Shown: positions 4,356-53,572 of the stretch, piece by piece
Position numbering within the stretch: position 1 is the first letter of the stretch
How the letters are laid out: each line of letters begins with the position of its first letter
Virus record (IMG/VR): IMGVR_UViG_3300034415_000120
Reading direction: 5' to 3' (one strand)
DNA: 64,000 bases
Source of the DNA: a virus
Notes under the pieces: model-generated
Told to the model about the DNA's origin: nothing
Seen by the model: the letters and a program-made list of their open reading frames with translations, nothing else
The model's database searches: none
Translations under genes and position numbers: made by a program

Positions 4356-4362
4356 CTGAAAC

Positions 4363-4677
4363 TTGAATTTCAAAGAAAGGAAGCGAGATGCAATAAGTCA
4401 GGAATTTGAAAATGAATTTTATAAATTAGATTACATTCATAATTACATTTTAAATATTATGAATCACATACCGAAATATGTTTATGGCAAACCAAAACAA
4501 TCAAAGAGACTCATTAAAGAATACATGTTGAAAAATGAATATGATGAATATTTTACAGAAGAAATTAATAATGATTTTTGTGAAGGTTTTGGATGCGCAG
4601 TTGATTTAATATTTAATGAATTTTTAAATGACATTCACGAGAAACATGAATTATTAAAAACAAGGGAGAATACATGA
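4363..4677 (+). CDS. hypothetical protein (start uncertain, TTG)
   Basis: ORF; the TGAAA-N6-TTTCA motif at 4357-4372 overlaps the annotated start. Confidence 0.35.
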   Translation: MNFKERKRDAISQEFENEFYKLDYIHNYILNIMNHIPKYVYGKPKQSKRLIKEYMLKNEYDEYFTEEINNDFCEGFGCAVDLIFNEFLNDIHEKHELLKTRENT

Positions 4678-4916
4678 ATATAATAGTTAGAAACGACAGA
4701 TATGAAACAATATTGAAACTACATTGTGAAAAGAATGGTACATTGACTATTGAACCAGTACCATCAGAAAGAAAAGCATATATGATTGAAATATTTGCTG
4801 ATAATAATGGAGAAGTTACATATAAGGTTGAAGTCTCAATGCCAGAAGAAATAATTGAACAGATTAGCACAGATGATCTGTTAAGAGAAGTGAGAAGAAG
4901 GATGGTAACTAAATGA
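4674..4916 (+). CDS. hypothetical protein (80 aa)
   Basis: ORF with RBS GGGAGAATACATG; overlapping stop/start coupling. Confidence 0.45.
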   Translation: MNIIVRNDRYETILKLHCEKNGTLTIEPVPSERKAYMIEIFADNNGEVTYKVEVSMPEEIIEQISTDDLLREVRRRMVTK

Positions 4917-5227
4917 GAGTTAAAAGATTATTGATTGGATTACTTGTATCTGGATTAGCATTTTCATTTACAGGATGTGGTGACGAAGTGATAAATGACA
5001 ACGGAGAAAAGGTTAGTTCTTATGGACAATTTATAGAAATTAATAAAAAGAACATTGTATCAAGTAATGGTTTTAAATTTATTCAATATTTTGTATATGA
5101 TAAAACCACCAAAATTGTATATGTATTGCAAGGCTTAAAAAATTTTAGTGGAATCGCACCATATTATGTATTAGATGAAAATGGCAAACCAGAAATTGCA
5201 ATCTATGGAGAAAATTATAATGGATAA
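4913..5227 (+). CDS. putative lipoprotein (signal peptide + lipobox FTGC)
   Basis: N-terminus MRVKRLLIGLLVSGLAFSFTGCGDE is a classic SPII signal peptide with lipobox. Confidence 0.55.
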   Translation: MRVKRLLIGLLVSGLAFSFTGCGDEVINDNGEKVSSYGQFIEINKKNIVSSNGFKFIQYFVYDKTTKIVYVLQGLKNFSGIAPYYVLDENGKPEIAIYGENYNG

Positions 5228-5440
5228 TGGGTTATTGAGTTATCCGATTTTGATGGAAAGGATATTGAACTGGAATGATTAAACATATCAAACAAGGCGA
5301 TAGAATAGGTGTAGCAAAACAAGTTCAAGGTGCAGTAGTTGACGTAAAATCACATCTAAGATTTACTGGGATGTATACTTTTACATATAATGGGGAACCC
5401 TGGACGTGTAGCGATTATGCATTTGATGAGGAATATAAGA

Positions 5441-5617
5441 ATGAAGTGGATTAAGAGAAAGATTATTATGTGGCTATTTGGGTATGATTTTCCACGGTAT
5501 GTAAGGCAGTTTTATAAAGAGCAGGATCAGATTATCAAAATGTATTCTGAAATGTTGCGAGAGGAAGAAAAACTTCTTAGATGGCTTAAATTAGCAGAAG
5601 AAAAGAGGTGTAAATAG
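5441..5617 (+). CDS. small basic hypothetical protein (MKWIKRK...)
   Basis: Internal ATG at 5441 has a better RBS (GAGGAA) than the ORF-track start at 5390. Confidence 0.35.
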   Translation: MKWIKRKIIMWLFGYDFPRYVRQFYKEQDQIIKMYSEMLREEEKLLRWLKLAEEKRCK

Positions 5618-6396
5618 TGGAAGAAATCATTAAGAATTATGATTCATATATATCAGGAATGAAGAAATCAAGTGCAGATAAGCTATTTTGGATGAGTAAA
5701 ATAGAAGAGATTGATACAGTGGTTGATTTTGGATGTGCTGATGGTACGTTAATTAGACAAATGAATAGTGAAATGCCAGATTTACACTACATAGGATATG
5801 ATAATAGCAAGGCTATGATTTCTCTTGCGGGAACAAGGACACCTCATGAACTAGAAAACATTCAATATGTAAGTAATTTAAAAGAATCTTTGAAAGAAAA
5901 TAACCCAAATAAAACATTATTAAATTTATCAAGCGTGATTCATGAAGTATATTCTTATTCAAATATTAATGGAATTGATAAGTTTTGGAATAATGTTTTT
6001 GGATATGATTATGGATACATAGCTATCAGAGATTTTTGTGTAAGTAGATCAGTAAATAGAAATAGTGATATTAATGATTATACCAAAGTGATTCAAAATG
6101 CAGAAGAGAAGCAGATCATTGATTATGAATCAATATGGGGAAGTTTACGAGATAACAGGAATTTGATTCATTATCTTATGAAATATAGATATATAGAAAA
6201 TTGGGATAGAGAAGTGAGAGAAAATTATTTTCCAATTACACTTGAGCAATTACTTAGTAAAATCCCTACATATAAATACGAGATTATATATTTTGAAGAT
6301 TACATCTTACCATTCACATCTAATAGAATCAAACAAGATTTCGATGTCGATATTCACGACAATACTCATGTAAAATTATTATTGCAATTGAAATAA
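5617..6396 (+). CDS. class I SAM-dependent methyltransferase
   Basis: Motif I VVDFGCADGTLI followed by an acidic loop (GYDNS); Rossmann MTase pattern. Confidence 0.6.
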   Translation: MEEIIKNYDSYISGMKKSSADKLFWMSKIEEIDTVVDFGCADGTLIRQMNSEMPDLHYIGYDNSKAMISLAGTRTPHELENIQYVSNLKESLKENNPNKTLLNLSSVIHEVYSYSNINGIDKFWNNVFGYDYGYIAIRDFCVSRSVNRNSDINDYTKVIQNAEEKQIIDYESIWGSLRDNRNLIHYLMKYRYIENWDREVRENYFPITLEQLLSKIPTYKYEIIYFEDYILPFTSNRIKQDFDVDIHDNTHVKLLLQLK

Positions 6397-6407
6397 GGTG
6401 TAAATGA

Positions 6408-7004
6408 TTGAGCTGTGTAGGGATTAGGGTTAAATATTTAGGTTATGTTTATAAGATGTATGGCAAAGAAGGTATAGTTATTGAAGACATTAGTAAAGAA
6501 TATCTAAATGCTGTAAAAATTGAATTTGATAATGGTACAATTCTTGTTGTAGATAAAAAAGATGTGGTAGTAATCGAAAGTGAGGATGATAACATGGCAA
6601 ATTTAGAAGGATATAAAGCAGTTGCAGTAACAAAAGAGGGTTATTACAAAAAGAAATATTATTATGCAATTTATGATGATGGAGAAACTTATAATGTAGG
6701 CGATAAAATTTTAGTTAGTGGTGCAAATAAAGACATCCTTACGATTGATGACATTATTGCGCCAGATGAATGTAATGTAAATATCACCGCCGAAGTTATC
6801 TGTAAAGTTGATGTTGATACATCTGCATATGATAAACGTATCGAAGAACGCAAAGAGAAAGCAGAACGTAAGAAAGAAGCTGATAAGATTAAGAGACAGA
6901 TGGATAAAATGATTTTAGCAATGGATTATGAGATGTACGCAAGTAATAATCCTGAGTTAGCGGAGAAATTAAAAGTATACAAAGAGTTGATCGGAGAGAA
7001 ATGA
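6408..7004 (+). CDS. hypothetical protein with C-terminal coiled coil
   Basis: ORF; the C-terminus ERKEKAERKKEADKIKRQMDK is charged helical. Confidence 0.45.
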   Translation: MSCVGIRVKYLGYVYKMYGKEGIVIEDISKEYLNAVKIEFDNGTILVVDKKDVVVIESEDDNMANLEGYKAVAVTKEGYYKKKYYYAIYDDGETYNVGDKILVSGANKDILTIDDIIAPDECNVNITAEVICKVDVDTSAYDKRIEERKEKAERKKEADKIKRQMDKMILAMDYEMYASNNPELAEKLKVYKELIGEK

Positions 7005-7261
7005 GCAAAGAAAAGATACATAAATTTCGTAGAAAGTTAGGCTGGATTGTTTTTATTGGTGGAATGATAGCAAATGTGATAATTTCGTGGGGATTTTTGT
7101 TCATGAAACCCGTCTTTCATCTGTTATTTTCCATTGCAGCAGGGGTATTTTCAGTCAAATTACTGGCAATTTCACTCTTAAAATGCTTTTTAGCTCCTGT
7201 TGTGTGGTATGCATTACTATGGACGATAGAAGTTATCACAGGATATTTAGGAGATTATTGA
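7001..7261 (+). CDS. small membrane protein (2 TM)
   Basis: Hydrophobic stretches GWIVFIGGMIANVIISWGFLF and IAAGVFSVKLLAISLL. Confidence 0.45.
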   Translation: MSKEKIHKFRRKLGWIVFIGGMIANVIISWGFLFMKPVFHLLFSIAAGVFSVKLLAISLLKCFLAPVVWYALLWTIEVITGYLGDY

Positions 7262-7798: not shown

Positions 7799-9025
7799 GT
7801 GAATGCAAATATAAAAGTAAAAAGATGTGAACAAGTAATTATTAGAAAGAATCATCCTAAATTTAAAATGATAGATCAACAGTGCTTTTGCTCTAAGAAT
7901 TTGTATAATGAAGCAAATTATGTATTACGTCAAGAATTTATAAACAATGATAAATACATAAGCTATTATGATATGAATAGAGAATTTAAAACACATGAGA
8001 ATTATAAACTTACATTCAGTCAACCTGCAAATTGTACTTTAAGATTGTTGGATAAAAACTGGAAATCTTATTTTAATGCAATTAAAGATTGGGGTAAAAA
8101 TCCCAATAAATATTTAGGTAAACCAAAACTTCCAAAATACTTAAAGAAAGACGGAAGGTTCATATGGATGATTCCAAATAATCAACTTCATTATAACTAT
8201 GAAAAGGGGACGATTCATATAAGTAATCGTTTAGTAAATGATTATGATTGGAAATGTCGTTGCTTAGGCAGAATAATTCAAGTTAGATTTGTTCCAAGAG
8301 GATCTTGTTATGTGATGGAAATTATCTATGAGACGGAAATTCCAAATACAAATAAAAAACCTAAGAGTATAGCAGCTATTGATTTAGGCGTAAATAATCT
8401 TGTAACTATGACAAATAATATCGGATTAAATCCAATTATTATTAACGGCAAGGGAATTAAAAGCATAAATCAGTGTTATAATAAAAGACTTGCAAAAGAA
8501 AGATCAATGCTGAAAATACGACATAATAAAGATTGGTCAAAGAAATTAGATATAATTACTTTTAAAAGATTTCAGAGAATAAAGAATTACATGCACAATA
8601 CAAGTCATTACATTGTAAGTTGGTGTATTGAAAATAACATTGACACATTAGTAGTTGGTAAAAACAACAAATGGAAACAAGAATCTGAGATGAATAAGAA
8701 ATCTAATCAGAATTTTATAATGATTCCGTACCAGATATTATTACAACAACTTAAATATAAGTGTGAAAATGTTGGAATTAATTACATTGAGCAAGAAGAA
8801 AGTTATACATCTGGAACAAGTTTCTTAGATGAAGAAAATCCAATTAAAGAGAATTATAATAAGAATAGACGTATTCAAAGAGGATTATTCAAAAGTAATT
8901 CTGGGCTATTAATTAATAGTGATGTAAATGGATCATTTCAGATTATGAAAAAAGTATTCCCAAATGCGATTAGTCGATATGGGATAGAGGGTGTTCTAAC
9001 CCCTATAGTTATAAATGTGGCATAA
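7799..9025 (+). CDS. tnpB: TnpB-like (IS200/IS605 OrfB family) protein, degenerate. RuvC-I Asp retained (AAIDLGV); RuvC-II Glu replaced (DTLVVGKNN vs canonical ..vvED.L..); the Zn-finger CxxC...CxxC is absent; the RuvC-III region (NSDVNGSFQI) is retained.
   Basis: Direct alignment against the intact TnpB at 25637 in this window. Overall TnpB architecture, with YTS motif ESYTSGT and DxNAAxNI-like SDVNGSFQI. Confidence 0.75.
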   Translation: MNANIKVKRCEQVIIRKNHPKFKMIDQQCFCSKNLYNEANYVLRQEFINNDKYISYYDMNREFKTHENYKLTFSQPANCTLRLLDKNWKSYFNAIKDWGKNPNKYLGKPKLPKYLKKDGRFIWMIPNNQLHYNYEKGTIHISNRLVNDYDWKCRCLGRIIQVRFVPRGSCYVMEIIYETEIPNTNKKPKSIAAIDLGVNNLVTMTNNIGLNPIIINGKGIKSINQCYNKRLAKERSMLKIRHNKDWSKKLDIITFKRFQRIKNYMHNTSHYIVSWCIENNIDTLVVGKNNKWKQESEMNKKSNQNFIMIPYQILLQQLKYKCENVGINYIEQEESYTSGTSFLDEENPIKENYNKNRRIQRGLFKSNSGLLINSDVNGSFQIMKKVFPNAISRYGIEGVLTPIVINVA

Positions 9026-9094
9026 GTTACATGATTTACTATGAACGTATTTATTATTAAGTACGATAGAATCTTGCTTTTAGGAGGTGAATAA

Positions 9095-9742: not shown

Positions 9743-9749
9743 AATATAT

Positions 9750-9793
9750 ACAATATATAGTTGCTTAAAATGTTAATATATACAATATATTGT
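9750..9793. promoter_or_regulatory. Pair of AT palindromic boxes ACAATATATAGT / ACAATATATTGT, 32 bp apart
   Basis: Read directly; upstream of the gene at 9845. Confidence 0.45.
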
Positions 9794-9844
9794 GTTAAAT
9801 ATTACATGAAATTGGCATTTCATAGACAAAATTGGAGGTAAAAT

Positions 9845-10405
9845 ATGTTAATTAGAAGTCAAAATGGAACAAAATTAATAGATATGTCTAGTAAAACAAT
9901 ATCAGTCGATAAATCAGGTTCAACTTTACCATATAAAAATGGATATGATGTTAAAATTTTATATGCAAATAGTTCTGTTTGGCTAGGAGAATATGATAGC
10001 AAAGAAAAAGCATTTAAAGTATTGGATATGATTGGCGAAGCACATCATTATTTTGAATCAGGATTTGAGATGGAAGTTTTTCAGATGCCACAAAATGATG
10101 ACGTTAATGTATCTGGAGTGAAATGTAAAGAAAATCCCACATTAACCGCAAATGAAAAATTATTTCTTGATTTGATTAAAGAAGAATATACATATATTGC
10201 AAGAGACAAAGATGGTCTATTGGCGGTTTATCCTAGAAAGCCTGAGAAAAAATTGACATATTGGTTACTTGCAGATAGCCCAAATACTGCAAGAGATTTA
10301 TATACTAGAGCATTAGATGTTGGTTTTGACTTCATTAAATGGGAAGACGAAGAACCTTGGTTAATTGAAAATTTGAAGAAGTTGGAGTTGAAAGATGAAA
10401 AATAG
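9845..10405 (+). CDS. hypothetical protein, paralog A (conserved C-terminal module ..FLD..EY.YI..DK...L.V......FDFIKWEDEEPWLIENLKKLELKDE)
   Basis: Shares about 80 aa of C-terminal similarity, and nucleotide similarity 10330-10400 vs 10745-10815, with the next gene. Confidence 0.5.
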   Translation: MLIRSQNGTKLIDMSSKTISVDKSGSTLPYKNGYDVKILYANSSVWLGEYDSKEKAFKVLDMIGEAHHYFESGFEMEVFQMPQNDDVNVSGVKCKENPTLTANEKLFLDLIKEEYTYIARDKDGLLAVYPRKPEKKLTYWLLADSPNTARDLYTRALDVGFDFIKWEDEEPWLIENLKKLELKDEK

Positions 10406-10820
10406 AGAAAAGTTTGCAAAAGAGATTTTAGATATTGCGTGTGGGGGTGGAGCATTTGCAGTTACAAAGTCAAGTAAAATTACCTCTTGCAATCAGATTA
10501 GCTGTGAGAAATGTATATTTCGTTCTGAAAAAACTTGCAGAATTAAGCGATATGAATGGTCACAATCAGAATATGTAGAGAAGCATACCATCACATTAAG
10601 AGAAAAGAAGTTTCTGGATATACTTTCACCAGAGTACAAATATATTACAAAAGATAAGAACAATGAACTTTATGTACACGATAAAAATTGGGTTTCAAAT
10701 GATAGAGATCATAATATATCAACAAATATTTTTGGTAATATGTTTGATTTTATTAAATGGGAAGATGAAGATCCTTGGTTAATTGAGGATTTGAAAAAAC
10801 TGGAGTTGAAAGATGAATGA
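10395..10820 (+). CDS. hypothetical protein, paralog B (Cys-rich N-terminus + the same C-terminal module)
   Basis: C-terminus FDFIKWEDEDPWLIEDLKKLELKDE; N-terminus CGGGAF...CNQISCEKC. Confidence 0.5.
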   Translation: MKNREKFAKEILDIACGGGAFAVTKSSKITSCNQISCEKCIFRSEKTCRIKRYEWSQSEYVEKHTITLREKKFLDILSPEYKYITKDKNNELYVHDKNWVSNDRDHNISTNIFGNMFDFIKWEDEDPWLIEDLKKLELKDE

Positions 10821-11142
10821 TTTAGATGATTATGAAGAAGATCCATATGACTACTGTTATGAATGTGGTGGATATGGTGATGATTATTATACGGACGAAG
10901 ATGGAGAATTAGTCTGTAGATGTCTTGAATGTCCTATGAATCCTAATTCGTGGGATGATTAATACATATCAAGTAAATTTCTATGGGTGATCACCCAAAT
11001 TATTTCCAAGAACAAAGAAATATTATTTTTTATCGGTCGGTTGCAAACGTCCGATTTACGTAGCATTGCAGAGTTTATAGAAAGGAATTTAGGTAAATTC
11101 TAGGATAAAGTAGTTGTGCAACTCCCTATAAAATAAGGGAAT

Positions 11143-12126
11143 TTGAGTCATTTAGTTGAAAATAATATTTTATCAGAGAATGGATTAAGAGTATTAAGTC
11201 TATTTGATGGTATATCATGCGGTAGAATTGCATTGGATAGAGCTGGGTTTGAAATAAATGATTATTATGCTTATGAGATTGAACAAAATGCAATCAAGAT
11301 AAGTAGATATAATTACCCATCAATTCATCAATGTGGTGATGTATTTGAGGAAGATTTTAGTAAATATGAAGGTATTGATTTGTTGATTGGAGGCAGTCCA
11401 TGCACCTTTTGGTCAAGTTCCAAGTGTTCAAAAACGGCAAAACATAAGAGGGAAGTTAAACCAGAGGGTGATGGATGGAATTTATTTATGGAATATGTAA
11501 GAGCATTACACGAATCTAAACCAAAATATTTTCTATATGAGAATAATTATAGGATTGATGATTCTATACAAGCTGCAATTACAGAAAATTTAGGTGTTGA
11601 ACCTGTTCTTCTCGATAGTCAGTTAATTTCGGCTCAAAGACGCAAGAGATTATATTGGACAAATATTCCAATAAAAGGAGAACCAGAAGATAAAGGAATT
11701 TTAGTAAAGGATGTGATTACAGATGATTATGAACTAATCAAACATTTTGATGATAGGATAAAAAATACATTAGTCAAATGTGAGAATTACATAAAGTATG
11801 ATTTGAGTGGTAAAGGACATTATTCTCAACAGGATAGGATGTATTTTCTTGATAATAAAGCACCAACTGTTCCGAGATGTAGAACTGAAACTAAATTTAA
11901 TGTTTGGTTAGGTGGTGAAACATATAAGAAAACTTGTCCTGTTGAGATAGAAAGACTTCAAACATTACCAGATGGATATACAGAATTTGGTATGAATGAA
12001 AATGGAAGTGTTGTAAAAATGCCTAAGACAAGAAGATTTGAAGCTATTGGAAATGGTTGGACTGTTGATATGATAGCTTGGATATTTAGTTTTATGAAGG
12101 AGAAATATAATGCAGATAACAGCTAA
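11143..12126 (+). CDS. DNA (cytosine-5)-methyltransferase
   Basis: Motif I LSLFDGISCG; PC motif GGSPCTFWSS; ENV-like YFLYENN; motif VIII QRRKRLYW. TTG start. Confidence 0.8.
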   Translation: MSHLVENNILSENGLRVLSLFDGISCGRIALDRAGFEINDYYAYEIEQNAIKISRYNYPSIHQCGDVFEEDFSKYEGIDLLIGGSPCTFWSSSKCSKTAKHKREVKPEGDGWNLFMEYVRALHESKPKYFLYENNYRIDDSIQAAITENLGVEPVLLDSQLISAQRRKRLYWTNIPIKGEPEDKGILVKDVITDDYELIKHFDDRIKNTLVKCENYIKYDLSGKGHYSQQDRMYFLDNKAPTVPRCRTETKFNVWLGGETYKKTCPVEIERLQTLPDGYTEFGMNENGSVVKMPKTRRFEAIGNGWTVDMIAWIFSFMKEKYNADNS

Positions 12127-12976
12127 AAGTTATTTTAGTGGAGCAGGAGGGATGGATTTAGGAATAGAGGAATCTGGAATTAACATAATTGAATCATATG
12201 AGATAGATAAAAAGTGTTGCGATACTCTGAGAAAGAATTTTAAACATCATGTAAATGAAGCGGATATTACACAGATTACCGTTCTTGATCAGAATGACGC
12301 AGATGTATATATTGGTACATTTCCATGCACACGGTATTCAACTATTGCTGATATTTCAGGCACAAGAACAGGAGATGATTTATTTTTACATTTCTTTAGA
12401 CATATTGCTTTGGCTCAACCAGAAATGTATGTAGTAGAAAATGTTCCTGGAATGCTTAAATTTAAAGTAGTTATGGAAGCATTAACAAAACTACCTGATT
12501 ATTATGTAAGAGTTGAATGTCCTGTTAATGCAAATATGTGGCTACCACAAGAAAGAAAACGATTGATTCTAATTGGAAGTAAAAAACCATTTACCAATTT
12601 TGATTATCCTGATTCTCAACCGTTAAGGCTTAAAGATATTATTGAAAAGGATGCTTCGATTGATATTCCACAATATGTATATAATCGCATCAATGGAAAG
12701 TATAGAGATAAACCAATTATTTCAGATCCAGACAATGATGATCTTGCTCCAACTTGTGTAGCACATTACGCAAAAGATAAAGGAACAAGATTGATTAAAG
12801 ACGGACAGAGAATTAGACCATATACAGTAAAAGAATATGCTAGATTACAAGGCTTTCCAGATTGGTTTGAGTTTTGTGGAACAGATAATGATGCTTATAG
12901 ACAAATTGGTAATGCTGTTGCTGTTCCAATGGGACGTTGGATTGGTAAACAGATTGTAAAATATTTTAATTCATAA
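12110..12976 (+). CDS. DNA (cytosine-5)-methyltransferase (second; overlaps the previous by 17 nt)
   Basis: Motif I YFSGAGGMDLG; PC motif GTFPCTRYS; ENV VVENVPGM; QERKRLILIG. Confidence 0.8.
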   Translation: MQITAKSYFSGAGGMDLGIEESGINIIESYEIDKKCCDTLRKNFKHHVNEADITQITVLDQNDADVYIGTFPCTRYSTIADISGTRTGDDLFLHFFRHIALAQPEMYVVENVPGMLKFKVVMEALTKLPDYYVRVECPVNANMWLPQERKRLILIGSKKPFTNFDYPDSQPLRLKDIIEKDASIDIPQYVYNRINGKYRDKPIISDPDNDDLAPTCVAHYAKDKGTRLIKDGQRIRPYTVKEYARLQGFPDWFEFCGTDNDAYRQIGNAVAVPMGRWIGKQIVKYFNS

Positions 12977-13500
12977 TAAGAAAAGGAGAAAACACTATGG
13001 GAATTACAAGCAAACAGACAGGAAAATTCAGAGGAATGATGAGAAAAATCGAGAATGAGCAGCTTAAAATTAAAGCCGATTCCGTAAAACGTAAGAAGAA
13101 AGAAGATAAGAAAAATGCCTGATATTACAATGTGCCGTAGTAGTGACTGCCCTAAACGCAGTCATTGCTACAGGGTACAAGCCAAACCAGATAAATTGCA
13201 GAGTTATTCAGACTTCTCTGCTGAATGTTTTCAATACAATTTCTTGCGATTTTGGAGTATGAGTGAGGAAGTTGATAAGATGAAGGGTTGATTTCAAATG
13301 AGATGGTTAATCAATTATATACGAAGTTGTTTTTGTAAACATGGCTTGGAATTAATTTTTGATACTCAAGTACATGGTGAAAAATTAGATGGAAGTCGTT
13401 ATGAATATCCATTATATCGTGTAAAAACATATCGTTGTAAAAAATGTGGAATGGAGAAGAAATATAAGAGTAACAGTTGAAAAGACTAATGAGGTGAATA

Positions 13501-13809
13501 ATGTCTAATTATATTTGTTTAACGTCATCAAAGTTATCAAGATACAAACAATATATGTATGTTGATTGTAAGAATTATCTTGCTGATGATTTATTCATAA
13601 AAAATAAAATCACGGTAAAATTTGAAGGTGATTTCACAAAGGATAATTCTGATTATATTTTTGTGTATTGTAAAGTAAAGAAAAAAGATCATGATAAATT
13701 CATTAAGACTCTTGGAGAATTGAAAAATAAGATGTTAATTATGGGACATTCTGATTACGAATCATTTTGTGAAAAACAGATTAATAAGATTTTGTGCAAA
13801 TTAAATTAG
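13501..13809 (+). CDS. hypothetical protein
   Basis: ORF with RBS GAGGTGAATAATG. Confidence 0.45.
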   Translation: MSNYICLTSSKLSRYKQYMYVDCKNYLADDLFIKNKITVKFEGDFTKDNSDYIFVYCKVKKKDHDKFIKTLGELKNKMLIMGHSDYESFCEKQINKILCKLN

Positions 13810-13862
13810 TAAAATTCGAGTTGAAAGAAATCTTTCATAGCATGGATAAATAGGAGGTAATT

Positions 13863-14405
13863 ATGGTATATGGAGTATTTGGTGGTTGTTATAGCGACTG
13901 GTATATAGTTGGTTATTTTGGTAATCGTGATGATGCAGAAAAATATTGTTGTATCTCCAATGCTGATTATTATGTAGAACCATTAAAAAATTTAACAAAT
14001 GAAAAAGATCTGTCGAAAGTAGAATTAAAGTATACTCATGAGGTTCTTTTTGATTATGATAAAAACAATAAATATACTATGAGAAAAGAACCAGATAGAT
14101 ATAGATATTATATAGATAATGAATTGCATTGCAATAGCATAACGAAAAGTAATAGACTGTGTAACTGGATAAAATTTGAAATTAATATTAGTCATAATGA
14201 TAGAAAACTTGCTGAAAAAATTGCACAAGATTATTTGGCAGAATTACGTTCTTACGGTGATGGTAAAATTTATGATGAAAATATTAAGTTGATGAATGAA
14301 AAATTTGTAAGACCTTTTAAAGAAAAAGAAAGATTAGAAAAAGAGAAACAGCTAAGAGAAAAAGAGTTAGCTGAATTACAAAGGTTAAAAGAAAAGTATG
14401 AGTAA
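13863..14405 (+). CDS. hypothetical protein with C-terminal coiled coil (KEKERLEKEKQLREKELAELQRLKEKYE)
   Basis: ORF with RBS TAGGAGGTAATTATG. Confidence 0.5.
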   Translation: MVYGVFGGCYSDWYIVGYFGNRDDAEKYCCISNADYYVEPLKNLTNEKDLSKVELKYTHEVLFDYDKNNKYTMRKEPDRYRYYIDNELHCNSITKSNRLCNWIKFEINISHNDRKLAEKIAQDYLAELRSYGDGKIYDENIKLMNEKFVRPFKEKERLEKEKQLREKELAELQRLKEKYE

Positions 14406-14476: not shown

Positions 14477-14812
14477 ATGATAAACGTGGTTGAAATGAGA
14501 TTAGTTAAAATTGTAGATATGAAACTCAAAAAATCAGATAAGCAATTCTTGTTGGATGTTAAATTAGATACTGGGGATTCATATGTTTATGTTAGAGATA
14601 TTGAAATTGCCAATATGGACAATGTATTAAATAGTGTAAAGATTGAACAAGATAACTTAACTGGCGATTGTATGATTTCAAGATTGTGCAAAAATAATTT
14701 ATGGGTACTTAATAATACCATAGAACATGAACAAAAACCAAAAGAAATGACATTAGAAGATATTGAAAAAGCTCTTGGATATCCTGTGAAGATTGTTGAG
14801 GATAAGAAATGA
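14477..14812 (+). CDS. hypothetical protein
   Basis: ORF with RBS AAGGAGAAACAATG. Confidence 0.45.
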   Translation: MINVVEMRLVKIVDMKLKKSDKQFLLDVKLDTGDSYVYVRDIEIANMDNVLNSVKIEQDNLTGDCMISRLCKNNLWVLNNTIEHEQKPKEMTLEDIEKALGYPVKIVEDKK

Positions 14813-14981
14813 ATAAATTAACTATGTATATTATATGGATTTTATGTGCAGTAATTTCTATCGGGGGAATGTTAATTACGAAAAATTCTGATACGGTTTG
14901 GTTTATGGTAATTCCTTTTGCGGTAATGTTTGCAGAAGATTTATGGAGTTGAAAAATTTATTTCAAGGAGAGAAATAATAC

Positions 14982-15580: not shown

Positions 15581-16945
15581 ATGAATTACGAAGATTTTCT
15601 AAAACAAAAGGATTATATTCTGGAAAGTAGCGGATTTAATATTGATAAAGATAAATTAAATCCCATGCTATTTGACTTTCAGAAAGATGTAGTAAGATGG
15701 GCGTTAGCAAAAGGTAAAGCTTGTATTTTTGCAGAGTGTGGGCTTGGCAAAACGCCAATGCAATTATCATGGGCGCATCAAGTACATCTACATACGGGCG
15801 GTAAAGTTTTGATTCTTGCACCTCTATCGGTTGCGGATCAGACAAAGAGAGAAGCTGAAAAATTCCATTACAATGCAAAAGTATGTGAGAAACAGGAAGA
15901 TTGTATTGATGGAATTAATATTACAAACTATGAGAAACTAGATAAATTCGTAGCAAATGAATTTGTTGGAGTAGTCTTAGACGAGAGTTCAATTCTTAAA
16001 TCCTACACTGGTAAAGTGAGGACTTCTATTATCGAGAATTTCCAAAATGTTCCCTATAAATTAGCTTGTACTGCGACACCTGCTCCAAATGATTATATGG
16101 AGTTGGGAAATCATTCTGAATTTTGTGGAGTTATGACACGTTCAGAAATGTTATCAATGTTCTTTGTTCATGATGGTGGTCAAACATCTAAGTGGAGATT
16201 AAAAGGTCATGCAAAAGATGTATTTTGGCAATGGATGGCAAGTTGGTCTGTATTTATTGATAATCCATCAAATTTAGGATATGACGGTACAGATTATGAA
16301 TTACCTAATTTGAATATTTATGAAATTATAGTTGATGGAGATGAACCAATCACTGAATCACTTACATTAACAGAGCGTAGAAATGCAAGAAAAGATACTC
16401 TTGAATTAAGATGTCAAAAAGCAGCAGATTTAGTAAATAATTCAGATGAACAATGGTTAGCCTGGTGTGATCTTAATGCAGAAGGTGATAGATTAAATGA
16501 ACTGATTGAAGAAAGTAAAAACGTTCAAGGAAGTGATAAGAATAAATACAAGAGTGAAACAATGCTATCATTTTCTGATGAAAAATTAAAATGTCTTATC
16601 AGCAAGCCACAGCTCGCAGGCTACGGCATGAATTGGCAGAATTGCCACAATGTTATTTTTACTGGACTTTCTGATAGTTTTGAGCAGTATTATCAGGCTG
16701 TAAGAAGATGTTGGCGTTTTGGTCAGACTCAAGAAGTTAATGTATACATAATCATTTCAGCAAAAGAAGGTTGCGTAAAAGAGAATATTGAAAGAAAACA
16801 GTTAGATTTTATCACTATGAGGGATGCAATGATTAATCTAACTAAAGAAATTACTAAGAAAGAGCTTAAATCAACGTGTAGGCTTACTACACCATATGAA
16901 GCAAATACAACAATGAAATTACCAAACTGGGAGGAATTCAAATAA
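15581..16945 (+). CDS. SNF2/DEAD-like family helicase (compact, 454 aa)
   Basis: Motif I AECGLGKT; motif II VVLDESSILK; motif III CTATPAPN; motif VI QAVRRCWRFGQ. Confidence 0.75.
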   Translation: MNYEDFLKQKDYILESSGFNIDKDKLNPMLFDFQKDVVRWALAKGKACIFAECGLGKTPMQLSWAHQVHLHTGGKVLILAPLSVADQTKREAEKFHYNAKVCEKQEDCIDGINITNYEKLDKFVANEFVGVVLDESSILKSYTGKVRTSIIENFQNVPYKLACTATPAPNDYMELGNHSEFCGVMTRSEMLSMFFVHDGGQTSKWRLKGHAKDVFWQWMASWSVFIDNPSNLGYDGTDYELPNLNIYEIIVDGDEPITESLTLTERRNARKDTLELRCQKAADLVNNSDEQWLAWCDLNAEGDRLNELIEESKNVQGSDKNKYKSETMLSFSDEKLKCLISKPQLAGYGMNWQNCHNVIFTGLSDSFEQYYQAVRRCWRFGQTQEVNVYIIISAKEGCVKENIERKQLDFITMRDAMINLTKEITKKELKSTCRLTTPYEANTTMKLPNWEEFK

Positions 16946-17853
16946 TGATGAACGTAATTGATCAAGCAGTAGCAAACAGATATGCACTTTATCATGGAGA
17001 TAGTGTAGAAATTACTAAGGAGATTCCAGATAATAGCATCCACTACACTATCTTTTCCCCACCATTTTCACAGTTATACGTGTACTCTAATTCAGATAGA
17101 GATATGGGTAATTGTAAAGGGGATGAAGAATTTTACAATCATTTCAAATATCTTGCAAAAGAATTATATAGAATTACAATGCCTGGACGACTTCTGAGTT
17201 TTCACTGTATGGATTTACCTCTTATGAAATCAAGAGATGGTGTAATTGGACTAAAAGATTTTCCTGCGCTCATGCTTAAAATCTTTCAGGATTGTGGATT
17301 CATCTACCATAGTAAAGTAACTATTTGGAAGAATCCTGTTACAGAAATGCAAAGAACAAAAGCACTTGGGCTTTTACATAAACAGATTAAGAAAGATAGT
17401 AGTATGAGTCGTCAAGGACTTCCAGATTATGTGATTACGGTTAGGAAGCCCGGTGATAATCCAGAACGAGTTGAACACACAAATGAATCATTTCCTGTTA
17501 ATGTATGGCAAAATTACGCTTCACCTGTATGGATGGACATTAGACAGAGTGATACATTACAGAGAAAATCAGCAAGATCTGAACAAGATGAGAAACATAT
17601 TTGTCCATTACAGCTTGAAGTAATTCAGAGATGTATTGAATTATGGACAAATCCAAACGATATTGTGTTTGATCCGTTTGGTGGAATTGGTTCTACTCCA
17701 TATGTTGCACTTAAATTAGGAAGAAGAGGAATTGCAAGTGAATTAAAAGATAGCTATTTTGAGCAGTTAAAGAAAAATGTAGAGTCTGTGGCTGCCGAAG
17801 AACCAGAAGTATTTCCAGTTGGAGAAAAGAGTATTGAGGATGTAGTCGCATAA
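16945..17853 (+). CDS. beta-class DNA N6-adenine/N4-cytosine methyltransferase
   Basis: Motif IV IFSPPF precedes motif I FDPFGGIGSTPYVALKLGRRGIASEL (PF01555-like order). Start overlaps the helicase stop (TAATGATG). Confidence 0.8.
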   Translation: MMNVIDQAVANRYALYHGDSVEITKEIPDNSIHYTIFSPPFSQLYVYSNSDRDMGNCKGDEEFYNHFKYLAKELYRITMPGRLLSFHCMDLPLMKSRDGVIGLKDFPALMLKIFQDCGFIYHSKVTIWKNPVTEMQRTKALGLLHKQIKKDSSMSRQGLPDYVITVRKPGDNPERVEHTNESFPVNVWQNYASPVWMDIRQSDTLQRKSARSEQDEKHICPLQLEVIQRCIELWTNPNDIVFDPFGGIGSTPYVALKLGRRGIASELKDSYFEQLKKNVESVAAEEPEVFPVGEKSIEDVVA

Positions 17854-17902
17854 GCGGCTATATTCCTTACATAAAATACGGGTTTCACAGGAGGAATAAT
17901 TT

Positions 17903-18475
17903 ATGAGTTATATTATCAAATCGCCAGATGAATTAAAAGATCCATTCTTATGTTATTGTATTTTTCAGAGGTTTATGGAAGAAGCGGGAGAAGATTACAT
18001 TGACTATAACGAGTTAATTGTCAAACCAATACCATTTATATTTTGGTTAAAAGGACGTAAGGAAATTACAAATGAACAGTTAGAAAAGCTTTTGAAAACA
18101 AAATATTTAGAAGAAGTGTTAGAGCAAGAATTATTTCCAAATACATATGGAGAAGCTGAGATTTCACAGAGTAAAGCTTATGTACTGTTAGCTGAATATA
18201 TGTGTCAAATTTCAGAATTTAGACAAAGAGTTTTTGATAGTGTGAATGATAAGGCAGACAGTTTTGAAGATAGTCAATTTTATAAAGATGAAAATGGAAT
18301 TAGTCTTGCTTGTATTATTGATGACGAAGATATGATTGAAACAAAACAGTATAATTTTGATGATTTTAAAAATATGACATTATATGAGTTTAATAAATTA
18401 TCTTATAAAGAACAATTTAATGCAGTAAAGAAATTATCAATTGAGGAAACCGATAGTATTGATAACATATATTAG
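17903..18475 (+). CDS. hypothetical protein (190 aa)
   Basis: ORF with RBS CAGGAGGAATAATTTATG. Confidence 0.5.
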   Translation: MSYIIKSPDELKDPFLCYCIFQRFMEEAGEDYIDYNELIVKPIPFIFWLKGRKEITNEQLEKLLKTKYLEEVLEQELFPNTYGEAEISQSKAYVLLAEYMCQISEFRQRVFDSVNDKADSFEDSQFYKDENGISLACIIDDEDMIETKQYNFDDFKNMTLYEFNKLSYKEQFNAVKKLSIEETDSIDNIY

Positions 18476-18503
18476 ATGAAACACAGGTTTCATGGATAGA
18501 ATA

Positions 18504-18551
18504 ATACTATATATTGTGTACTGATGTTTTAATATACACAATATATAGTAT
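18504..18551. promoter_or_regulatory. Perfect 17-bp inverted repeat ATACTATATATTGTGTA ...14 nt... TACACAATATATAGTAT, containing two 12-bp AT palindromic boxes 32 bp apart
   Basis: Read directly. Related box pairs occur at 9750-9793 and 51993-52035. Confidence 0.5.
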
Positions 18552-21052: not shown

Positions 21053-21097
21053 AGTTAAAACGGCAGTTTCAAGGACAAAAAATGAAAGGTGCGTAAA

Positions 21098-36096: not shown

Positions 36097-36121
36097 AATC
36101 TAGTTTTCATAGGAGAAGTAT

Positions 36122-38085: not shown

Positions 38086-38724
38086 ATGAAGTATAGTGAT
38101 AATATTACAATCCAAAAATTTATAGAACAGTTGGTTGATGCATTGAAATACGAGAATACATATAGAGAACTAAATGGTAAAAAGTTAAATATTCCATTTT
38201 TAGTATCTGCGCTATGGCAGGATTTAATGGACAACTATGAATGTTATGATGAATTTTGTTCTGATTTAAGAGATTGTGATAATTATGATATTGTAATTGG
38301 AGATGATAATTATTACATTTGTAAGGTAAATATTTTTCTTTACAACGAAATTGAAAACGATGATTGGAAATGTTTAAGAGAATCAGATTCCAGATACGAA
38401 TTTACATTTAATTATGATGAACACAATTGGGGATATTGTGAATGTAAACCTGGTGATCCAGATTATAGAGAAGATAAACATTGTTGTGGTCATGGATGTG
38501 ATTGGGATGCACCAAGTATTGAAGTAAGAAAAAGTTTTCTTGTATCAAACCACTCATGGAATGGAGATGAACATGATTATTGGGACTTTGAAGATAAGTT
38601 TTATGCGAATGATAAAGAAGAAAATGAAAAAAAGTTATTAGCAGAAAGAGAATATAAGATTAAGAATCTTAAAGAAACTATCGAAAATGCTCAAAAAGAG
38701 TTAAAAAAGTTAGAGAATTTATAA
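38086..38724 (+). CDS. Cys/His/Trp-rich protein with C-terminal coiled coil
   Basis: CECKPGDPDYREDKHCCGHGCDWD; the C-terminus is a charged helix. Confidence 0.45.
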   Translation: MKYSDNITIQKFIEQLVDALKYENTYRELNGKKLNIPFLVSALWQDLMDNYECYDEFCSDLRDCDNYDIVIGDDNYYICKVNIFLYNEIENDDWKCLRESDSRYEFTFNYDEHNWGYCECKPGDPDYREDKHCCGHGCDWDAPSIEVRKSFLVSNHSWNGDEHDYWDFEDKFYANDKEENEKKLLAEREYKIKNLKETIENAQKELKKLENL

Positions 38725-39161
38725 ATGAAACTTTCGTTTCATGTGCTTCTCAAACCCAGTGTTTATAAGGGTTTTGGGACACGAAATTTAAAAAATGCTT
38801 GAAAATCAAGTAAAATCAACAAATTACAGATTTTTTAAAAATCAATCGCTGAAAAGCCTTGATACATAAGGGTTTCTGAGTTTAAAAAACGAAAAAATGT
38901 AAATGTGTTAAATAGTTGAAATCCAAATTTCATCGGAGAAATAAATCTCATAGATTCAATCGAATCGAATTTTCCAAATAAATTAAAACTGAATAGAGAA
39001 ATAAAAAATGGGTGGTTAGCAGCATACCCTTGGGATTTTGTACCCATAAACCACTGTTGACATAGAATTTATCTTATAGATTTAATTCCATGTTCCGTCC
39101 GATAGGGCGTTTATCATAAACAAATTAAAAATTAATAAACAATTATTAAGGAGAAAAACAC
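38725..39161. promoter_or_regulatory. Largest intergenic region (~435 bp, AT-rich) upstream of the replication module. Contains TTGACA (39056), AAAATCAA repeats (38789-38840) and inverted AAAATC/GATTTT elements. Candidate early promoter/operator or origin.
   Basis: Repeats read directly; no function has been shown. Confidence 0.35.
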
Positions 39162-40207: not shown

Positions 40208-41188
40208 ATGATTCCAAATTTATTAGACTTACAACCAAACAAAGTATCTGTTGACCTTACTCAGTATTCAATGATTATCATGGGTGATACTGGTGTTGGT
40301 AAAACAATGAGTACAATGAAGTTTCTGAAAGAATTAGTTCCAGATAAAGATCCATTCTTCCTAGAATTTGAAGATAGATTCCAGAACATTCCTGGAATTA
40401 CCGCAGTAAAAGTAAATAGTATGTCAGACTTTAAATCAATCATTGGACAGTTAAGAAATCCAGCATTAAAAAATAAATTCTCTTGTATTGTAATTGATAC
40501 GCTTGACAAATATGAAGAATTTTGTGAGAGATATGTCCTTGAGAATAGAGATGCTGAAATCTTAAAAGATGTTGGTGGTTTTGGTGAAGGTTCATTAAGA
40601 TTTAAAAGTGCATTAAGAAACATTGGATTGATTCAAAGTTTAGGATATACAGTTCATTGTATTGCACAGTCTTCTCACGTAAAAGATTTTGACACAAAGA
40701 AAGAGAGTGATTCTCTTAAACTTAACAAAAACACATTTTCATATTGTAGAGAAGGTGCTTTCCTTGTTGGATATATGTATCAAAAAGATGGAGAGCGTTA
40801 TGTAACATTTAAGAAAAGTGACAAATATCCAGATTTAAAAGATACATTCAATCTTCCAAACGAAATCAACATTAAAGATTTGAAAGATGTATGGGTAAAA
40901 GCAGTAGAAGATTTAGGTGGAGATTTCACAACCAAAGAGAAAACAATTGATAAGACTACTCATGTAGAAGACTTTAATGCAATTAAGAATAAAGGATTAG
41001 AGTTAGGAGCATTACTTGCACAGCATGGATATCTGAATGAAGCTACCGCAGTTTTACAGAAAAATTTAGGTCTTGATGATGATGGAAATGTAAAAATGTT
41101 TGATAGTCTAAGAGATACACAGATTGATCTTACAAAAGTAATTGTAATGGAACTTGAAGAACTTGTTACAAAATACAACATTAAATAA
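40208..41188 (+). CDS. RecA-like/Sak4-like P-loop ATPase (recombination)
   Basis: Walker A GDTGVGKT; Walker B CIVIDTLD; size and position typical of phage Sak4/AAA_24. Confidence 0.5.
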   Translation: MIPNLLDLQPNKVSVDLTQYSMIIMGDTGVGKTMSTMKFLKELVPDKDPFFLEFEDRFQNIPGITAVKVNSMSDFKSIIGQLRNPALKNKFSCIVIDTLDKYEEFCERYVLENRDAEILKDVGGFGEGSLRFKSALRNIGLIQSLGYTVHCIAQSSHVKDFDTKKESDSLKLNKNTFSYCREGAFLVGYMYQKDGERYVTFKKSDKYPDLKDTFNLPNEINIKDLKDVWVKAVEDLGGDFTTKEKTIDKTTHVEDFNAIKNKGLELGALLAQHGYLNEATAVLQKNLGLDDDGNVKMFDSLRDTQIDLTKVIVMELEELVTKYNIK

Positions 41189-51692: not shown

Positions 51693-51962
51693 ATGACATT
51701 TGATAATTTACTTGATTTACAACCTAATGTTAGGTTAGCAGATTTAATTCAATTATTCTTAATGGGGTATGATGATAAAATTTATGTAAATGTGATTATA
51801 CATGAAGCAAACTTAAAAGAACCAATTGAATTATCTGAGGTAAGAATTATAGATAGTGCTTTGAAACCGTATTATGAATATAAAATAGCATATTTAGAAG
51901 ATTCATATTATGAAACTCCTGGAAGCATGATGACAATAAATCTAACAAAAGAAGATGATTAA
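51693..51962 (+). CDS. hypothetical protein
   Basis: ORF. Confidence 0.4.
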   Translation: MTFDNLLDLQPNVRLADLIQLFLMGYDDKIYVNVIIHEANLKEPIELSEVRIIDSALKPYYEYKIAYLEDSYYETPGSMMTINLTKEDD

Positions 51963-51992
51963 ATGAAAGCAGAATTTCATGGCAAAAATGAT

Positions 51993-52035
51993 ACTATATA
52001 TAGTGTTTTGAATAGTTATAAATACTATATATAGT
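51993..52035. promoter_or_regulatory. Pair of perfect palindromes ACTATATATAGT, 31 bp apart
   Basis: Read directly. Preceded at 51964-51979 by a TGAAA-N6-TTTCA site, the same arrangement as at 18477-18551. Confidence 0.45.
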
Positions 52036-52051
52036 ACGTGAGAAAAGGGGT

Positions 52052-52450
52052 GAACAACTATTATTCCAGAAAAATGTAATAAATGTGGTTGTGAAGAATT
52101 TTATACAAAAGAAAGTGGCACACAGACAGGACTGTATTGTAAGAAATGCAACAAATGGATTAAATGGTTAAGTAAGAAAGAAATAACTGACTTTAATAAA
52201 CTGAGTGTTTCTGATGTACAGATTGATACAAATGGTGACATTCATGGCAAATTAGTTTCTTCAATTGAAGAGCGTTTGTGGAGATTTGTAGAATTTCTTG
52301 ATAAGAAAATTGATAAAGAATTAGAAAGAGAACCATTATCTCAATCAGATTCTATTGCAAAATGTTCTTATTCACTTGCATTAGAAAGAGATAAAAACGC
52401 ACTAATCAATATTCTTAATGGTAGAGAATTTCATGATATGGGTGAATAAA
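52052..52450 (+). CDS. Zn-ribbon protein with no canonical start codon in frame (possible ATT start after RBS AAAAGGGG)
   Basis: Open frame of ~132 codons from the stop at 52042 to TAA 52448-52450, encoding ..IIPEKCNKCGCEEFYTKESGTQTGLYCKKCNKW.. The first in-frame ATG/GTG/TTG is far downstream, so the start is uncertain. Confidence 0.3.
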
Positions 52451-52451
52451 T

Positions 52452-52766
52452 ATGTTATACAAAATCAAGAGTATTAAACATAACGGTACATGTGATGAAT
52501 GTGGCACTGAAAGAACAGATGACAGATATCATCAACGAATTGGTAGAGTTGTAGAGTTAAATATTGATGATATCGAAATTGGATATCCGCTACTCATTCG
52601 ATATATAAAAGATTCTGATGGTACTTCAATGAAGTTTAGTCTTTTGAAAACAAGTTGTGTTAAAAACTATATTACTGTTGATGATTTAGAAGGAATCGTA
52701 AAATATATTACGATAGAAACCCAAAACTCCATATTTGAGTTTGAAAGAGTGGATGATAATGAATAA
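52452..52766 (+). CDS. hypothetical protein
   Basis: ORF. Confidence 0.45.
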   Translation: MLYKIKSIKHNGTCDECGTERTDDRYHQRIGRVVELNIDDIEIGYPLLIRYIKDSDGTSMKFSLLKTSCVKNYITVDDLEGIVKYITIETQNSIFEFERVDDNE

Positions 52767-52978
52767 ATATGTTAAATCATATCTACAAGCTTTAGAAGAA
52801 ACATTGTCAAAGAAGTACAGTATTTCATCATATAAAGCAAAATGATTATTCAAGATTCATATGTAATTCAATGTTTAAGAGACTATCCAGAAGAAAGTTT
52901 ACATGAGGATATAGAAACTGTCGCAGATATTATATATGGTGATTATATATGGTGATTATATAGAAAAGAGGTAAATAA

Positions 52979-53548
52979 ATGCAAGATATTTTAGGAAGAG
53001 AACTACAAGACGGTGATATATGTGTTGGAAAAGGCACTGGACGTAATGTAATTGGAATGTCAATTGGTGTCTGGTATGGTAATTCAATGACTGATGAAGA
53101 TGGATGTAAACGACATATGAGAGATCTATTTAAGATTGTAAATCCTTCTGATGAGGAACTTAAGATTGCAAATGAAATTAAAAGTAGACTACGTGAACAA
53201 GAAGAAGAGAAAGAAAAGAAGAGGCAAATTAAAACTATTCCATTGAAAGATTTAGTTGTTGGTGGAATATATAAAGGCATCTATGGAGAATATTATTTAT
53301 ATTTGGGAAATAGAATTGTTTCTAATGAATATAGAGACGCATTAATAGAAGAAAAGGGTAATTGTTTTATTCGTATATCAAATGCAAATATGGAATTAAA
53401 AAGAATGTTTAATTCGGCAGATATTAAGGTTTTAAAAGGGTGTAAAAAATTAGTAGAACATATAAAAACTGTAGAATTAAAAAAATTCCCAATAGTAATT
53501 GAGTCCTGTTCTCCACTTGATTACAAAAGAAAACTTACAATAAGATGA
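52979..53548 (+). CDS. hypothetical protein
   Basis: ORF with RBS AGAGGTAAATAAATG. Confidence 0.45.
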   Translation: MQDILGRELQDGDICVGKGTGRNVIGMSIGVWYGNSMTDEDGCKRHMRDLFKIVNPSDEELKIANEIKSRLREQEEEKEKKRQIKTIPLKDLVVGGIYKGIYGEYYLYLGNRIVSNEYRDALIEEKGNCFIRISNANMELKRMFNSADIKVLKGCKKLVEHIKTVELKKFPIVIESCSPLDYKRKLTIR

Positions 53549-53572
53549 AAGAACTGTTTCATGGAGGTCAAT

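Follow-up and report, generated by a model that had tools for sequence, protein, structure and literature searches.

A palindrome repeated at gene junctions

The DNA considered here is a 64,000-nucleotide stretch of the IMG/VR virus record IMGVR_UViG_3300034415_000120 (the window), in which a short palindrome, TGAAA-N6-TTTCA, recurs between genes. The window genes lie essentially all on the plus strand, at 28-32% GC and with a strong positive GC skew throughout. They include replication and recombination genes (a Sak4-type AAA_24 protein, DnaB, a DHH protein, DNA polymerase, RecD2, and Gp157) and genes for nucleotide metabolism and ligation (an NAD-dependent ligase, thymidylate synthase, and NrdD/NrdG). 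Other products are several DNA methyltransferases, Thg1-like, YopX and PAPS-reductase-like proteins, an SPFH protein, and two TnpB proteins.

Among deposited phages, the sole near DNA match of the window is MT835469.1, an unannotated 176-kb sequence from human faeces. A scan of viral contigs for the motif followed by a ribosome-binding site (RBS) returned mainly contigs of about 110-180 kb and 30% GC which belong to one gut-phage family (overall range roughly 110-205 kb), and the same scan of bacterial genomes gave scattered chance matches only, among them two Parvimonas matches in rRNA. MT835469 encodes a 406-aa tyrosine integrase on the minus strand (region 92350-94300). The attP upstream of this gene is of the classical type, having repeated TTCACCC arm-type sites together with a tRNA fragment; past the integrase 3' end, and convergent with it, is the gene of an Xis-like helix-turn-helix (HTH) protein. 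Because of this integrase and attP, the family is taken to be temperate, and these ~175-kb gut phages probably integrate into a tRNA gene. MT835469 is a temperate gut phage with Firmicutes-type features.

The window holds 17 exact copies of the motif; shuffled sequences that keep its dinucleotide composition (n = 100) hold 0.55 on average and 3 at most. The 12 copies listed in the original prediction are all correctly placed; five further exact copies lie at 7104, 14950, 30266, 38917, and 62381. The imperfect TAAAA variant, which it also named, is likewise enriched (8 in the window vs 1.65 expected). With the one-mismatch copies at gene junctions (n = 8), the window holds about 24 junction sites, and MT835469 holds about 38 copies (35-40). 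Only the 6-bp spacer is enriched (17 exact copies in the window and 25 in MT835469, vs 0-3 for any other spacer of 3-10 bp, and 0-2 in the window alone), and TGAAA is by far the top palindrome of the 5-N6-5 form in three clades of the family, with 128, 54, and 41 copies.

The bases next to the arms show a preference as well: of 113 non-redundant family sites, 59% have A at position -1, 64% have T at +17, and about half have GGAGG from +18 on. Information content is at background beyond position -1, and past +17 there is only the RBS signal. The whole palindrome, (A)TGAAA-N6-TTTCA(T), is 16-18 bp long with arms of 5-6 bp. The motif string had no match in the literature searched.

In the complete relative, the copies are nearly all in one part of the genome. 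Of the 25 exact sites of MT835469, 24 are located at 11-90 kb; together with most of the single-variant sites they occupy ~7-90 kb, in the plus-strand arm, and the minus-strand structural arm has essentially no copies. A phage-wide regulon, as first proposed, is not what this complete relative displays: the sites are restricted to its plus-strand early/accessory/replication arm.

Within that arm, sites abut the upstream stop codon as closely as the downstream RBS (Table 1). Seven sites of the window overlap the upstream gene, whose stop codon is the left-arm TGA or TAA, and at most other sites that stop lies 1-10 nt before the site. In the window, 14 of the 19 intergenic gaps of 24-53 nt hold a site, and shorter gaps hold an RBS only. 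The proposed position 10-25 nt before at least 12 start codons holds clearly for seven of the 12 listed copies, which lie 11-25 nt upstream of a start (9807, 13822, 22982, 27876, 32591, 36094, and 53546). The start after 4357 is uncertain, and 18477, 24903, 38726, and 51964 precede 67-420 nt of noncoding DNA or other elements. When unlisted exact sites (14950 and 30266) and one-mismatch sites (3910, 17872, 21056, 21805, 27046, and 34231) are counted as well, sites precede at least 15 start codons by 11-26 nt. The exact copies at 7104 and 62381, inside likely coding sequence, are compatible with a chance origin; that at 7104 is conserved in MT835469, but inside a uniformly conserved block.

Table 1. 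Motif copies and NrdR-like boxes in the window (ORF, open reading frame)
Feature	Position	Context
Site, left arm TAAAA	3910-3925	TAA is the stop of ORF 3724-3912; next start 3942
Exact site	4357-4372	1 nt past stop of ORF 3942-4355; downstream start uncertain
Exact match	7104-7119	Within ORF 7001-7261; possibly chance/nonfunctional
Tandem NrdR-like boxes	9748-9795 (9748-9763, 9780-9795)	Partner element of composite module
Exact site	9807-9822	11 nt downstream of tandem NrdR-box pair, 22 nt upstream of ATG 9845
One-mismatch site TGAAG	13281-13296	Junction of ORFs 13115-13291 and 13298-13480
Exact site	13822-13837	Between ORF 13501-13809 and ATG 13863
Exact site	14950-14965	TGA is the stop of ORF 14809-14952; RBS directly after; ATG 14982
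TAAAA-variant site	17872-17887	15 nt upstream of ATG 17903
Exact site	18477-18492	1 nt past stop of ORF 17903-18475; 11 nt upstream of NrdR-box pair
Tandem NrdR-like boxes	18504-18551 (18504-18519, 18536-18551)	
TAAAA-variant site	21056-21071	Between ORF 20789-21052 and ATG 21098
TAAAA-variant site	21805-21820	TAA is the stop of ORF 21613-21807; orthologous site in MT835469 is TGAAA
Exact site	22982-22997	13 nt upstream of ATG 23011
Exact site	24903-24918	After ORF 24596-24898
One-mismatch site ATTCA	27046-27061	14 nt upstream of ATG 27076; exact in MT835469 orthologue
Exact site	27876-27891	TGA is the stop of ORF 27687-27878; TGGAGG directly after; ATG 27904
TAAAA-variant site	29399-29414	2 nt past stop of ORF 29127-29396; then long noncoding stretch
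Exact site	30266-30281	Between ORF 29616-30260 and GTG 30306
Exact site	32591-32606	TGA is the stop of ORF 32354-32593; ATG 32627
TAAAA-variant site	34231-34246	1 nt past stop of ORF 33999-34229; ATG 34266
Exact site	36094-36109	TGA is the stop of ORF 35911-36096; ATG 36122
Exact site	38726-38741	1 nt past stop of ORF 38086-38724; left border of 175-nt ORF-free stretch
Exact site	38917-38932	Right border of 175-nt ORF-free stretch; conserved noncoding segment 38936-39094 next
Exact site	51964-51979	1 nt past stop of ORF 51693-51962; 11 nt upstream of NrdR-box pair
Tandem NrdR-like boxes	51991-52037 (51991-52006, 52022-52037)	
Exact site	53546-53561	TGA is the stop of ORF 52979-53548; TGGAGG directly after; ATG 53573
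Exact match	62381-62396	Within nrdG-like gene 62118-62675; probably chance/coding-constrained

Two equivalent half-sites and proposed control at cassette junctions

How the arms vary indicates which form of nucleic acid is recognized. Non-redundant RBS-adjacent sites were tallied over 1.09 Mb of family DNA. Positions 2 and 15 read G-C in 75 of them, A.C in 16, G.T in 16, and A-T in 5, and the other arm positions are almost invariant. The two positions vary equally (0.188 each) and independently, as double changes were seen 5 times vs 3.9 expected. In an RNA or single-stranded DNA stem, G.U would be tolerated far better than A.C and compensated A-U pairs would be favored. The symmetric and independent variation therefore points to two equivalent half-sites, 5'-(A)T-R-A-A-A, on duplex DNA, bound by a symmetric dimer. 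The half-site centers are 11 bp apart, which is one helical turn and a common arrangement for HTH dimers. The spacer is fixed in length and free in sequence, and the arms, conserved as sequence, change at a rate 5-10 times below that of the spacer or of the flanks.

The orientation of the sites bears on the same question. The NrdR-box consensus is acaCwAtATaTwGtgt, and the window contains three tandem pairs of 16-bp palindromes of the form ATAC[AT]ATATAT[AT]GTGT, start-to-start 31-32 bp. NrdR boxes have been defined as two partly palindromic 16-bp boxes with a 15-16 bp linker (PMC13584703, PMC12051234). All three pairs agree with this definition in box length, partial palindromy, and linker. 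At 18477 and 51964 they form a composite module in the order site, 11 nt, NrdR box, 15 or 16 nt, NrdR box. The segment 9748-9822 is the reverse complement of this module, with similarity running through the spacers, which implies that the motif functions, or at the least is kept, whichever way it faces with respect to transcription. None of the three pairs lies directly upstream of nrdD/nrdG, and three plus-arm promoters seem to have been put under the host (or phage) ribonucleotide-reductase repressor.

Together, conserved arms, a fixed spacer of free sequence, the 11-bp distance between half-site centers, symmetric independent degeneracy, and module inversion bear out the proposal of a site for a dimeric DNA-binding protein, and the motif as a putative double-stranded DNA site with two equivalent half-sites is supported.

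The function that we favor, with a probability of roughly 45%, is that this family-conserved putative site serves a symmetric dimeric protein in stoperator-like control of transcription at cassette junctions. A dimeric HTH-type regulator, encoded outside the window or by the host, would bind the sites and control RNA polymerase that starts near the junctions or reads through them. Once bound, it would be a roadblock or insulator, or would occupy an operator where a site adjoins a promoter. The sites at 18477 and 51964 would insulate NrdR-controlled promoters from upstream read-through, the site at 9807 would lie at about +1 of such a promoter, and sites elsewhere would be roadblocks. The roadblock effect is conjectural, because most sites are not beside recognizable promoters.

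The closest known parallel is found in cluster A mycobacteriophages, in which elongation is stopped by repressors that bind at more than 20 positions in short intergenic spaces (PMC9283540). Like the stoperators of the L5 gp71-type repressor, the motif is present in more than 20 copies in the short intergenic spaces of a temperate phage, often touching stop or start codons. A stoperator is an asymmetric 13-mer to which a monomer binds and which is oriented with transcription, whereas the motif is a palindrome of two equivalent half-sites. It thus shares with stoperators the many intergenic copies in a temperate phage and lacks their asymmetric, transcription-oriented site. Unlike stoperators, too, it occurs in a single arm and does not vary between diverged clades. 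We infer that it belongs with a known kind of element, the multi-copy intergenic regulatory sites of phages.

Several observations weigh against such a regulator. No DNA-binding domain was detected in 64 small window proteins (Pfam, PHROGs) or in larger ones, and the expectation that the regulator is encoded in this genome was not confirmed among the window proteins scanned. Immunity repressors usually diversify in specificity, so that a motif identical across strongly diverged clades (down to 40% identity in one core protein) would be unusual for them. An RBS starts exactly 1 nt after about half of the sites, so that an RNA-level or translational role is conceivable, and the variants in the window taken alone are asymmetric (7 TAAAA vs 1 TTTTA). 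Furthermore, most sites have no recognizable adjoining promoter. Matches to sigma70-type promoters are below shuffle expectation and none are systematically at sites.

Candidates for a binding protein occur in MT835469. The part of its plus arm that lies outside the window (~5.6-30 kb) encodes a Bro-N/ORF6C protein (13649-14362), an HTH_38 protein, a PemK/MazF-type toxin, and a protein with a GmrSD-like N-terminal domain, and MT835469 also encodes a 186-aa protein with two HTH-like regions (17278-17838). The window has no counterpart of the PemK/MazF, Bro-N/ORF6C, GmrSD-like, or 186-aa proteins.

Other classes of signal were compared with the motif and rejected. As a sigma70 promoter with TTGAAA as its -35 element, it lacks a -10 signal downstream; a proper TGnTATAAT at the right distance exists at a single slot in relatives, where the right arm and the -35 region coincide. 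An ECF-type -35 element (TGAAAC) or an N4-like hairpin promoter does not fit, as nothing is conserved 16-17 bp downstream and the start would fall in the RBS. The arm spacing misfits the sites of Crp/Fnr, LexA, ArgR, PlcR, and CodY as well as parS. An intrinsic terminator or stabilizing RNA hairpin is contradicted by weak folds, with an AU-rich stem of 5-7 bp and no U tract.

Should the sites bind a regulator, multi-site control of a temperate phage across its genome would have evolved independently a second time; this mode of control is so far well studied in mycobacteriophages only. It would be a dimeric, palindromic form of such control in large uncultured gut phages with Firmicutes-type features. 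The motif also offers a handle for capturing the regulator and for recognizing members of the family in metagenomes.

Mosaicism and the possibility of recombination at the sites

The junctions that carry the motif are boundaries of mosaicism. The same 16-mer, spacer included, recurs across phages in the same genomic order next to unrelated neighbors. When contexts sharing a site were paired, both flanks were dissimilar in 66 pairs, the upstream flank only in 48, the downstream flank only in 36, and both flanks were similar in 33. Control 16-mers shared between loci have both flanks similar in 90% of cases and neither in 1.3%. The ORFs flanking shared sites encode nonhomologous proteins and not diverged alleles. 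Identity is at background by position -1, and downstream it is kept only through the RBS, with left breakpoints at -1 to +4 in 59 of 66 cases and right breakpoints at 13-26. Of about 76 ends of homology blocks between the window and MT835469, about 17 lie within ~25 nt of a site vs ~1.4 expected. Blocks end exactly at 3925 and at 38741, one starts exactly at 22982, and another ends 14 nt past the 13822 site. As the only conserved sequence at these junctions, the sites survive as islands under cassette replacement and mark mosaic boundaries. The motif delimits the exchangeable accessory cassettes of the family, which include many DNA methyltransferases and TnpB.

This pattern raises the question of whether the sites are themselves recombination sites, with inverted arms around a 6-bp crossover spacer as in lox, FRT, dif, or pdif sites, acted on by a tyrosine recombinase or used by phage annealing recombinases as 16-25 bp of identity. 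We consider this unlikely. The sharp breakpoints between unrelated flanks and the clustering of block ends described above speak for it, as does a 57-aa cassette which lies between near-identical sites and is absent in relatives. With slot-specific spacers, exchange would occur only between equivalent sites of co-infecting relatives, and cassettes would change places in register, with no deletion inside either genome. The window encodes a Sak4-type recombinase (AAA_24) at 40208-41188. Family members also carry a small tyrosine recombinase of 274 aa in the accessory-gene arm (MT835469.1 25747-26571; around 10001-10822 in L171-L205), with a short N-terminal region and a catalytic domain that has all catalytic residues (R, HxxR, H, and Y). 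The gene belongs to the core of this arm, is 96-100% identical in 22 loci and 59-67% and 40-41% identical in further clades, and all clades have the same motif. The protein has no sequence-detectable homologue of solved structure.

The sites themselves fit less well. The lox, FRT, dif, and pdif sites have inverted arms of 11-13 bp around a spacer of 6-8 bp, and sites with differing spacers are mutually incompatible; pdif modules are the XerC/D-flanked resistance modules of Acinetobacter plasmids. The motif resembles these systems in its inverted arms, 6-bp spacer, and site-bounded gene modules and in the small tyrosine recombinase of the family. However, its conserved arms measure 5-6 bp as opposed to the 9-13 bp of known tyrosine recombinase sites, so that a simple core site is matched in its arms-plus-spacer arrangement and not in arm length, and the 11-bp center spacing is better suited to HTH dimers. 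The recombinase is tied to the motif by co-inheritance in one phage family alone. For cassettes between same-spacer sites, one partial example only was found of a precise single-site partner. The spacer stays with its slot whichever flank is replaced, but it drifts at about half the rate of the flanks and is thus not strongly selected as an address.

Homology breaks are also common at gene junctions of every kind: 86% of those with a motif have one, as do 64% of the other gaps that measure 15 nt or more and 46% of short gaps. The mosaic pattern can arise from a retained functional site, a lack of spare nucleotides in compact genomes under selection for intact junctions, and ordinary homologous exchange within shared cassettes. 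As these three ordinary causes can account for it, a site-specific mechanism is possible and not required. It is distinctly improbable that the ~35 lox/pdif-like sites, with shared arms and slot-specific spacers, are addressed crossover points at which the small tyrosine recombinase would let co-infecting relatives trade accessory or anti-defense cassettes. Such a natural recombinase-mediated cassette exchange would be a novel route to plasticity of phage genomes.

Clade A has an 86-bp palindromic region (L171 9449-9560) with 34-nt arms, TTGACA boxes, and three GTACAC-N5-GTGTAC palindromes, at a distance of about 470 nt on the upstream side of the small recombinase gene. The 34-nt inverted repeat was considered as a dedicated site of the recombinase and rejected, as it resembles a divergent promoter/operator switch and its conservation does not extend to clades B and C. 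Nor is the motif the core site of the 406-aa MT835469 integrase, since the TTCACCC arms and tRNA fragment of that attP are unrelated to it. Integron attC sites are at least 57 bp long, have R''/R' cores, and travel with the upstream ORF; the 16-18 bp motif, whose spacer stays with the slot, does not match them.

A repeated element at cassette boundaries has been described in T4-type phages, where PeSL combines an early promoter with a stem-loop in hyperplastic regions and no dedicated recombinase has been demonstrated (PMC2839356). As with PeSL, the motif is a repeated intergenic element among small accessory genes at the boundaries of insertions, deletions, and replacements (PMC2839356), with a modest enrichment over other junctions. 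Where PeSL has a sigma70 promoter and a stable GC-rich terminator hairpin, the motif has neither a promoter signature nor a stable stem-loop but a marginal hairpin, a length of 16-18 bp, and a slot-specific spacer.

Possible RNA-level and host-factor explanations, and neighboring features

The original prediction also allowed for a translational operator hairpin. In this explanation, which we regard as improbable, the element acts in the mRNA as a short hairpin or bipartite motif 5' of the RBS, where it is bound by a protein or cut by a nuclease and controls translation, processing, or stability of the downstream cistron. The tight register with translation signals (T at +17, GGAGG at +18) agrees with this, and so do the upstream stop codon, often within or 1-4 nt before the left arm, and the finding of sites in sense orientation only, within an arm whose genes run in one direction. 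One relative encodes a MazF/PemK-type endoribonuclease. In addition, start-associated repeats with upstream inverted repeats exist in cluster K mycobacteriophages, where SAS/ESAS are found just before the starts of a subset of genes, in one orientation and with unknown function (PMC3203893). The motif shares the start-proximal location, and about half of the SAS have upstream inverted repeats with a spacer (PMC3203893). The SAS is an asymmetric 13-mer which includes the RBS, and the ESAS has 17-bp arms with a variable spacer of 4-13 bp; the motif, unlike these, has arms of 5-6 bp, a strict 6-bp spacer, and a third of its sites not beside a start codon.

The hairpin itself, however, is poorly borne out. 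Positions 2 and 15 show no compensatory covariation, with nonpairing A.C as common as G.U and the A-U double not enriched. The stem does not reach into the spacer, where A is avoided at position 6, T is avoided at position 11, and 6:11 pairing is not enriched (25 of 54 complementary vs 22 expected, P = 0.23). Predicted RNA folds are marginal at -3 to -7 kcal/mol, with z-scores from -1.2 to +0.6 in seven of eight contexts (z = -3.2 at 18477), and in three contexts the minimum-energy fold does not contain the motif hairpin. A conserved stem sequence with a free loop is the reverse of typical protein-binding RNA hairpins. Finally, several sites lie upstream of promoters or far from starts, and the NrdR module is also found inverted.

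The invariance of the motif across diverged clades makes a host factor possible as well. Within operons, cre sites act as roadblocks. The sites could be bound by a conserved host regulator, for example CcpA on a cre-like target with a noncanonical 6-bp spacer, in which case an HPr/Crh-like phage protein would possibly modulate binding and expression of the accessory arm would be coupled to host physiology, as with the NrdR boxes. The arms are identical to those of an idealized cre (TGAAA...TTTCA), and the same phage uses host-type NrdR boxes. CcpA reportedly binds inverted TGTAAA/TTTACA arms whose spacers vary (cre-var; PMC5263246).

The HPr/Crh-like protein is an 80-aa product (56009-56251) with the Ser46 motif DAKSIMGILS, including KSIMG, and without His15 and Arg17. 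Its gene is 96% conserved at the DNA level in MT835469, and the protein could be a decoy or co-effector for HprK/P or CcpA. Its match to HPr is weak, though (Pfam 1e-5; PDB HPr E about 0.02). The canonical cre TGWAANCGNTNWCA, with its 4-bp spacer and central CG, was rejected as an identity for the motif, which has a strict 6-bp spacer and no central CG, and no canonical cre site occurs in the window. The bacterial-genome scan gave only chance matches. We regard binding by such a host regulator as very unlikely.

Several features lie beside the sites. Between 38742 and 39161 there is a 420-nt ORF-free gap, of which the first 175 nt lie between two motif sites. Its segment 38936-39094 is 93% identical to MT835469 despite diverged neighboring genes and is followed by a terminator-like hairpin (39096-39109). 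The gap may encode a small RNA; the noncoding stretch at 38.7-39.2 kb has no Rfam match.

TnpB genes (OrfB_IS605 and Cas12f-like TNB) are located at 7799-9025 and 25637-26758, where relatives have other genes. The second TnpB cassette, which consists of a zinc-ribbon ORF and TnpB and is not at this slot in relatives, starts directly 3' of the TTTCA of site 24903, and the first TnpB adjoins a decayed site, TAGAA-TCTTGC-TTTTA (~9064-9079). No TnpA was seen. The motif was rejected as an IS200/IS605 target or TnpB TAM, given that one cassette starts after TTTCA (24919) and the other replaces a gene beside the decayed left arm, with no consistent rule.

DNA methyltransferase genes are unusually dense (11143-12976, 16945-17853, 29616-30260, and 5617-6396) and comprise three C5 types, one of them truncated, one N6/N4 type, and one generic S-adenosylmethionine-dependent type. 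This content suggests that the cassette arm is largely an anti-restriction/anti-defense arsenal. At the window edge, positions 1-63 hold the 3' part of a tRNA gene cut by the window start (Rfam tRNA, 30.2 bits). A 99-nt direct repeat, 81% identical between 10325-10423 and 10743-10841, spans the ends of two small adjacent genes and the following starts, which indicates a local tandem gene duplication.

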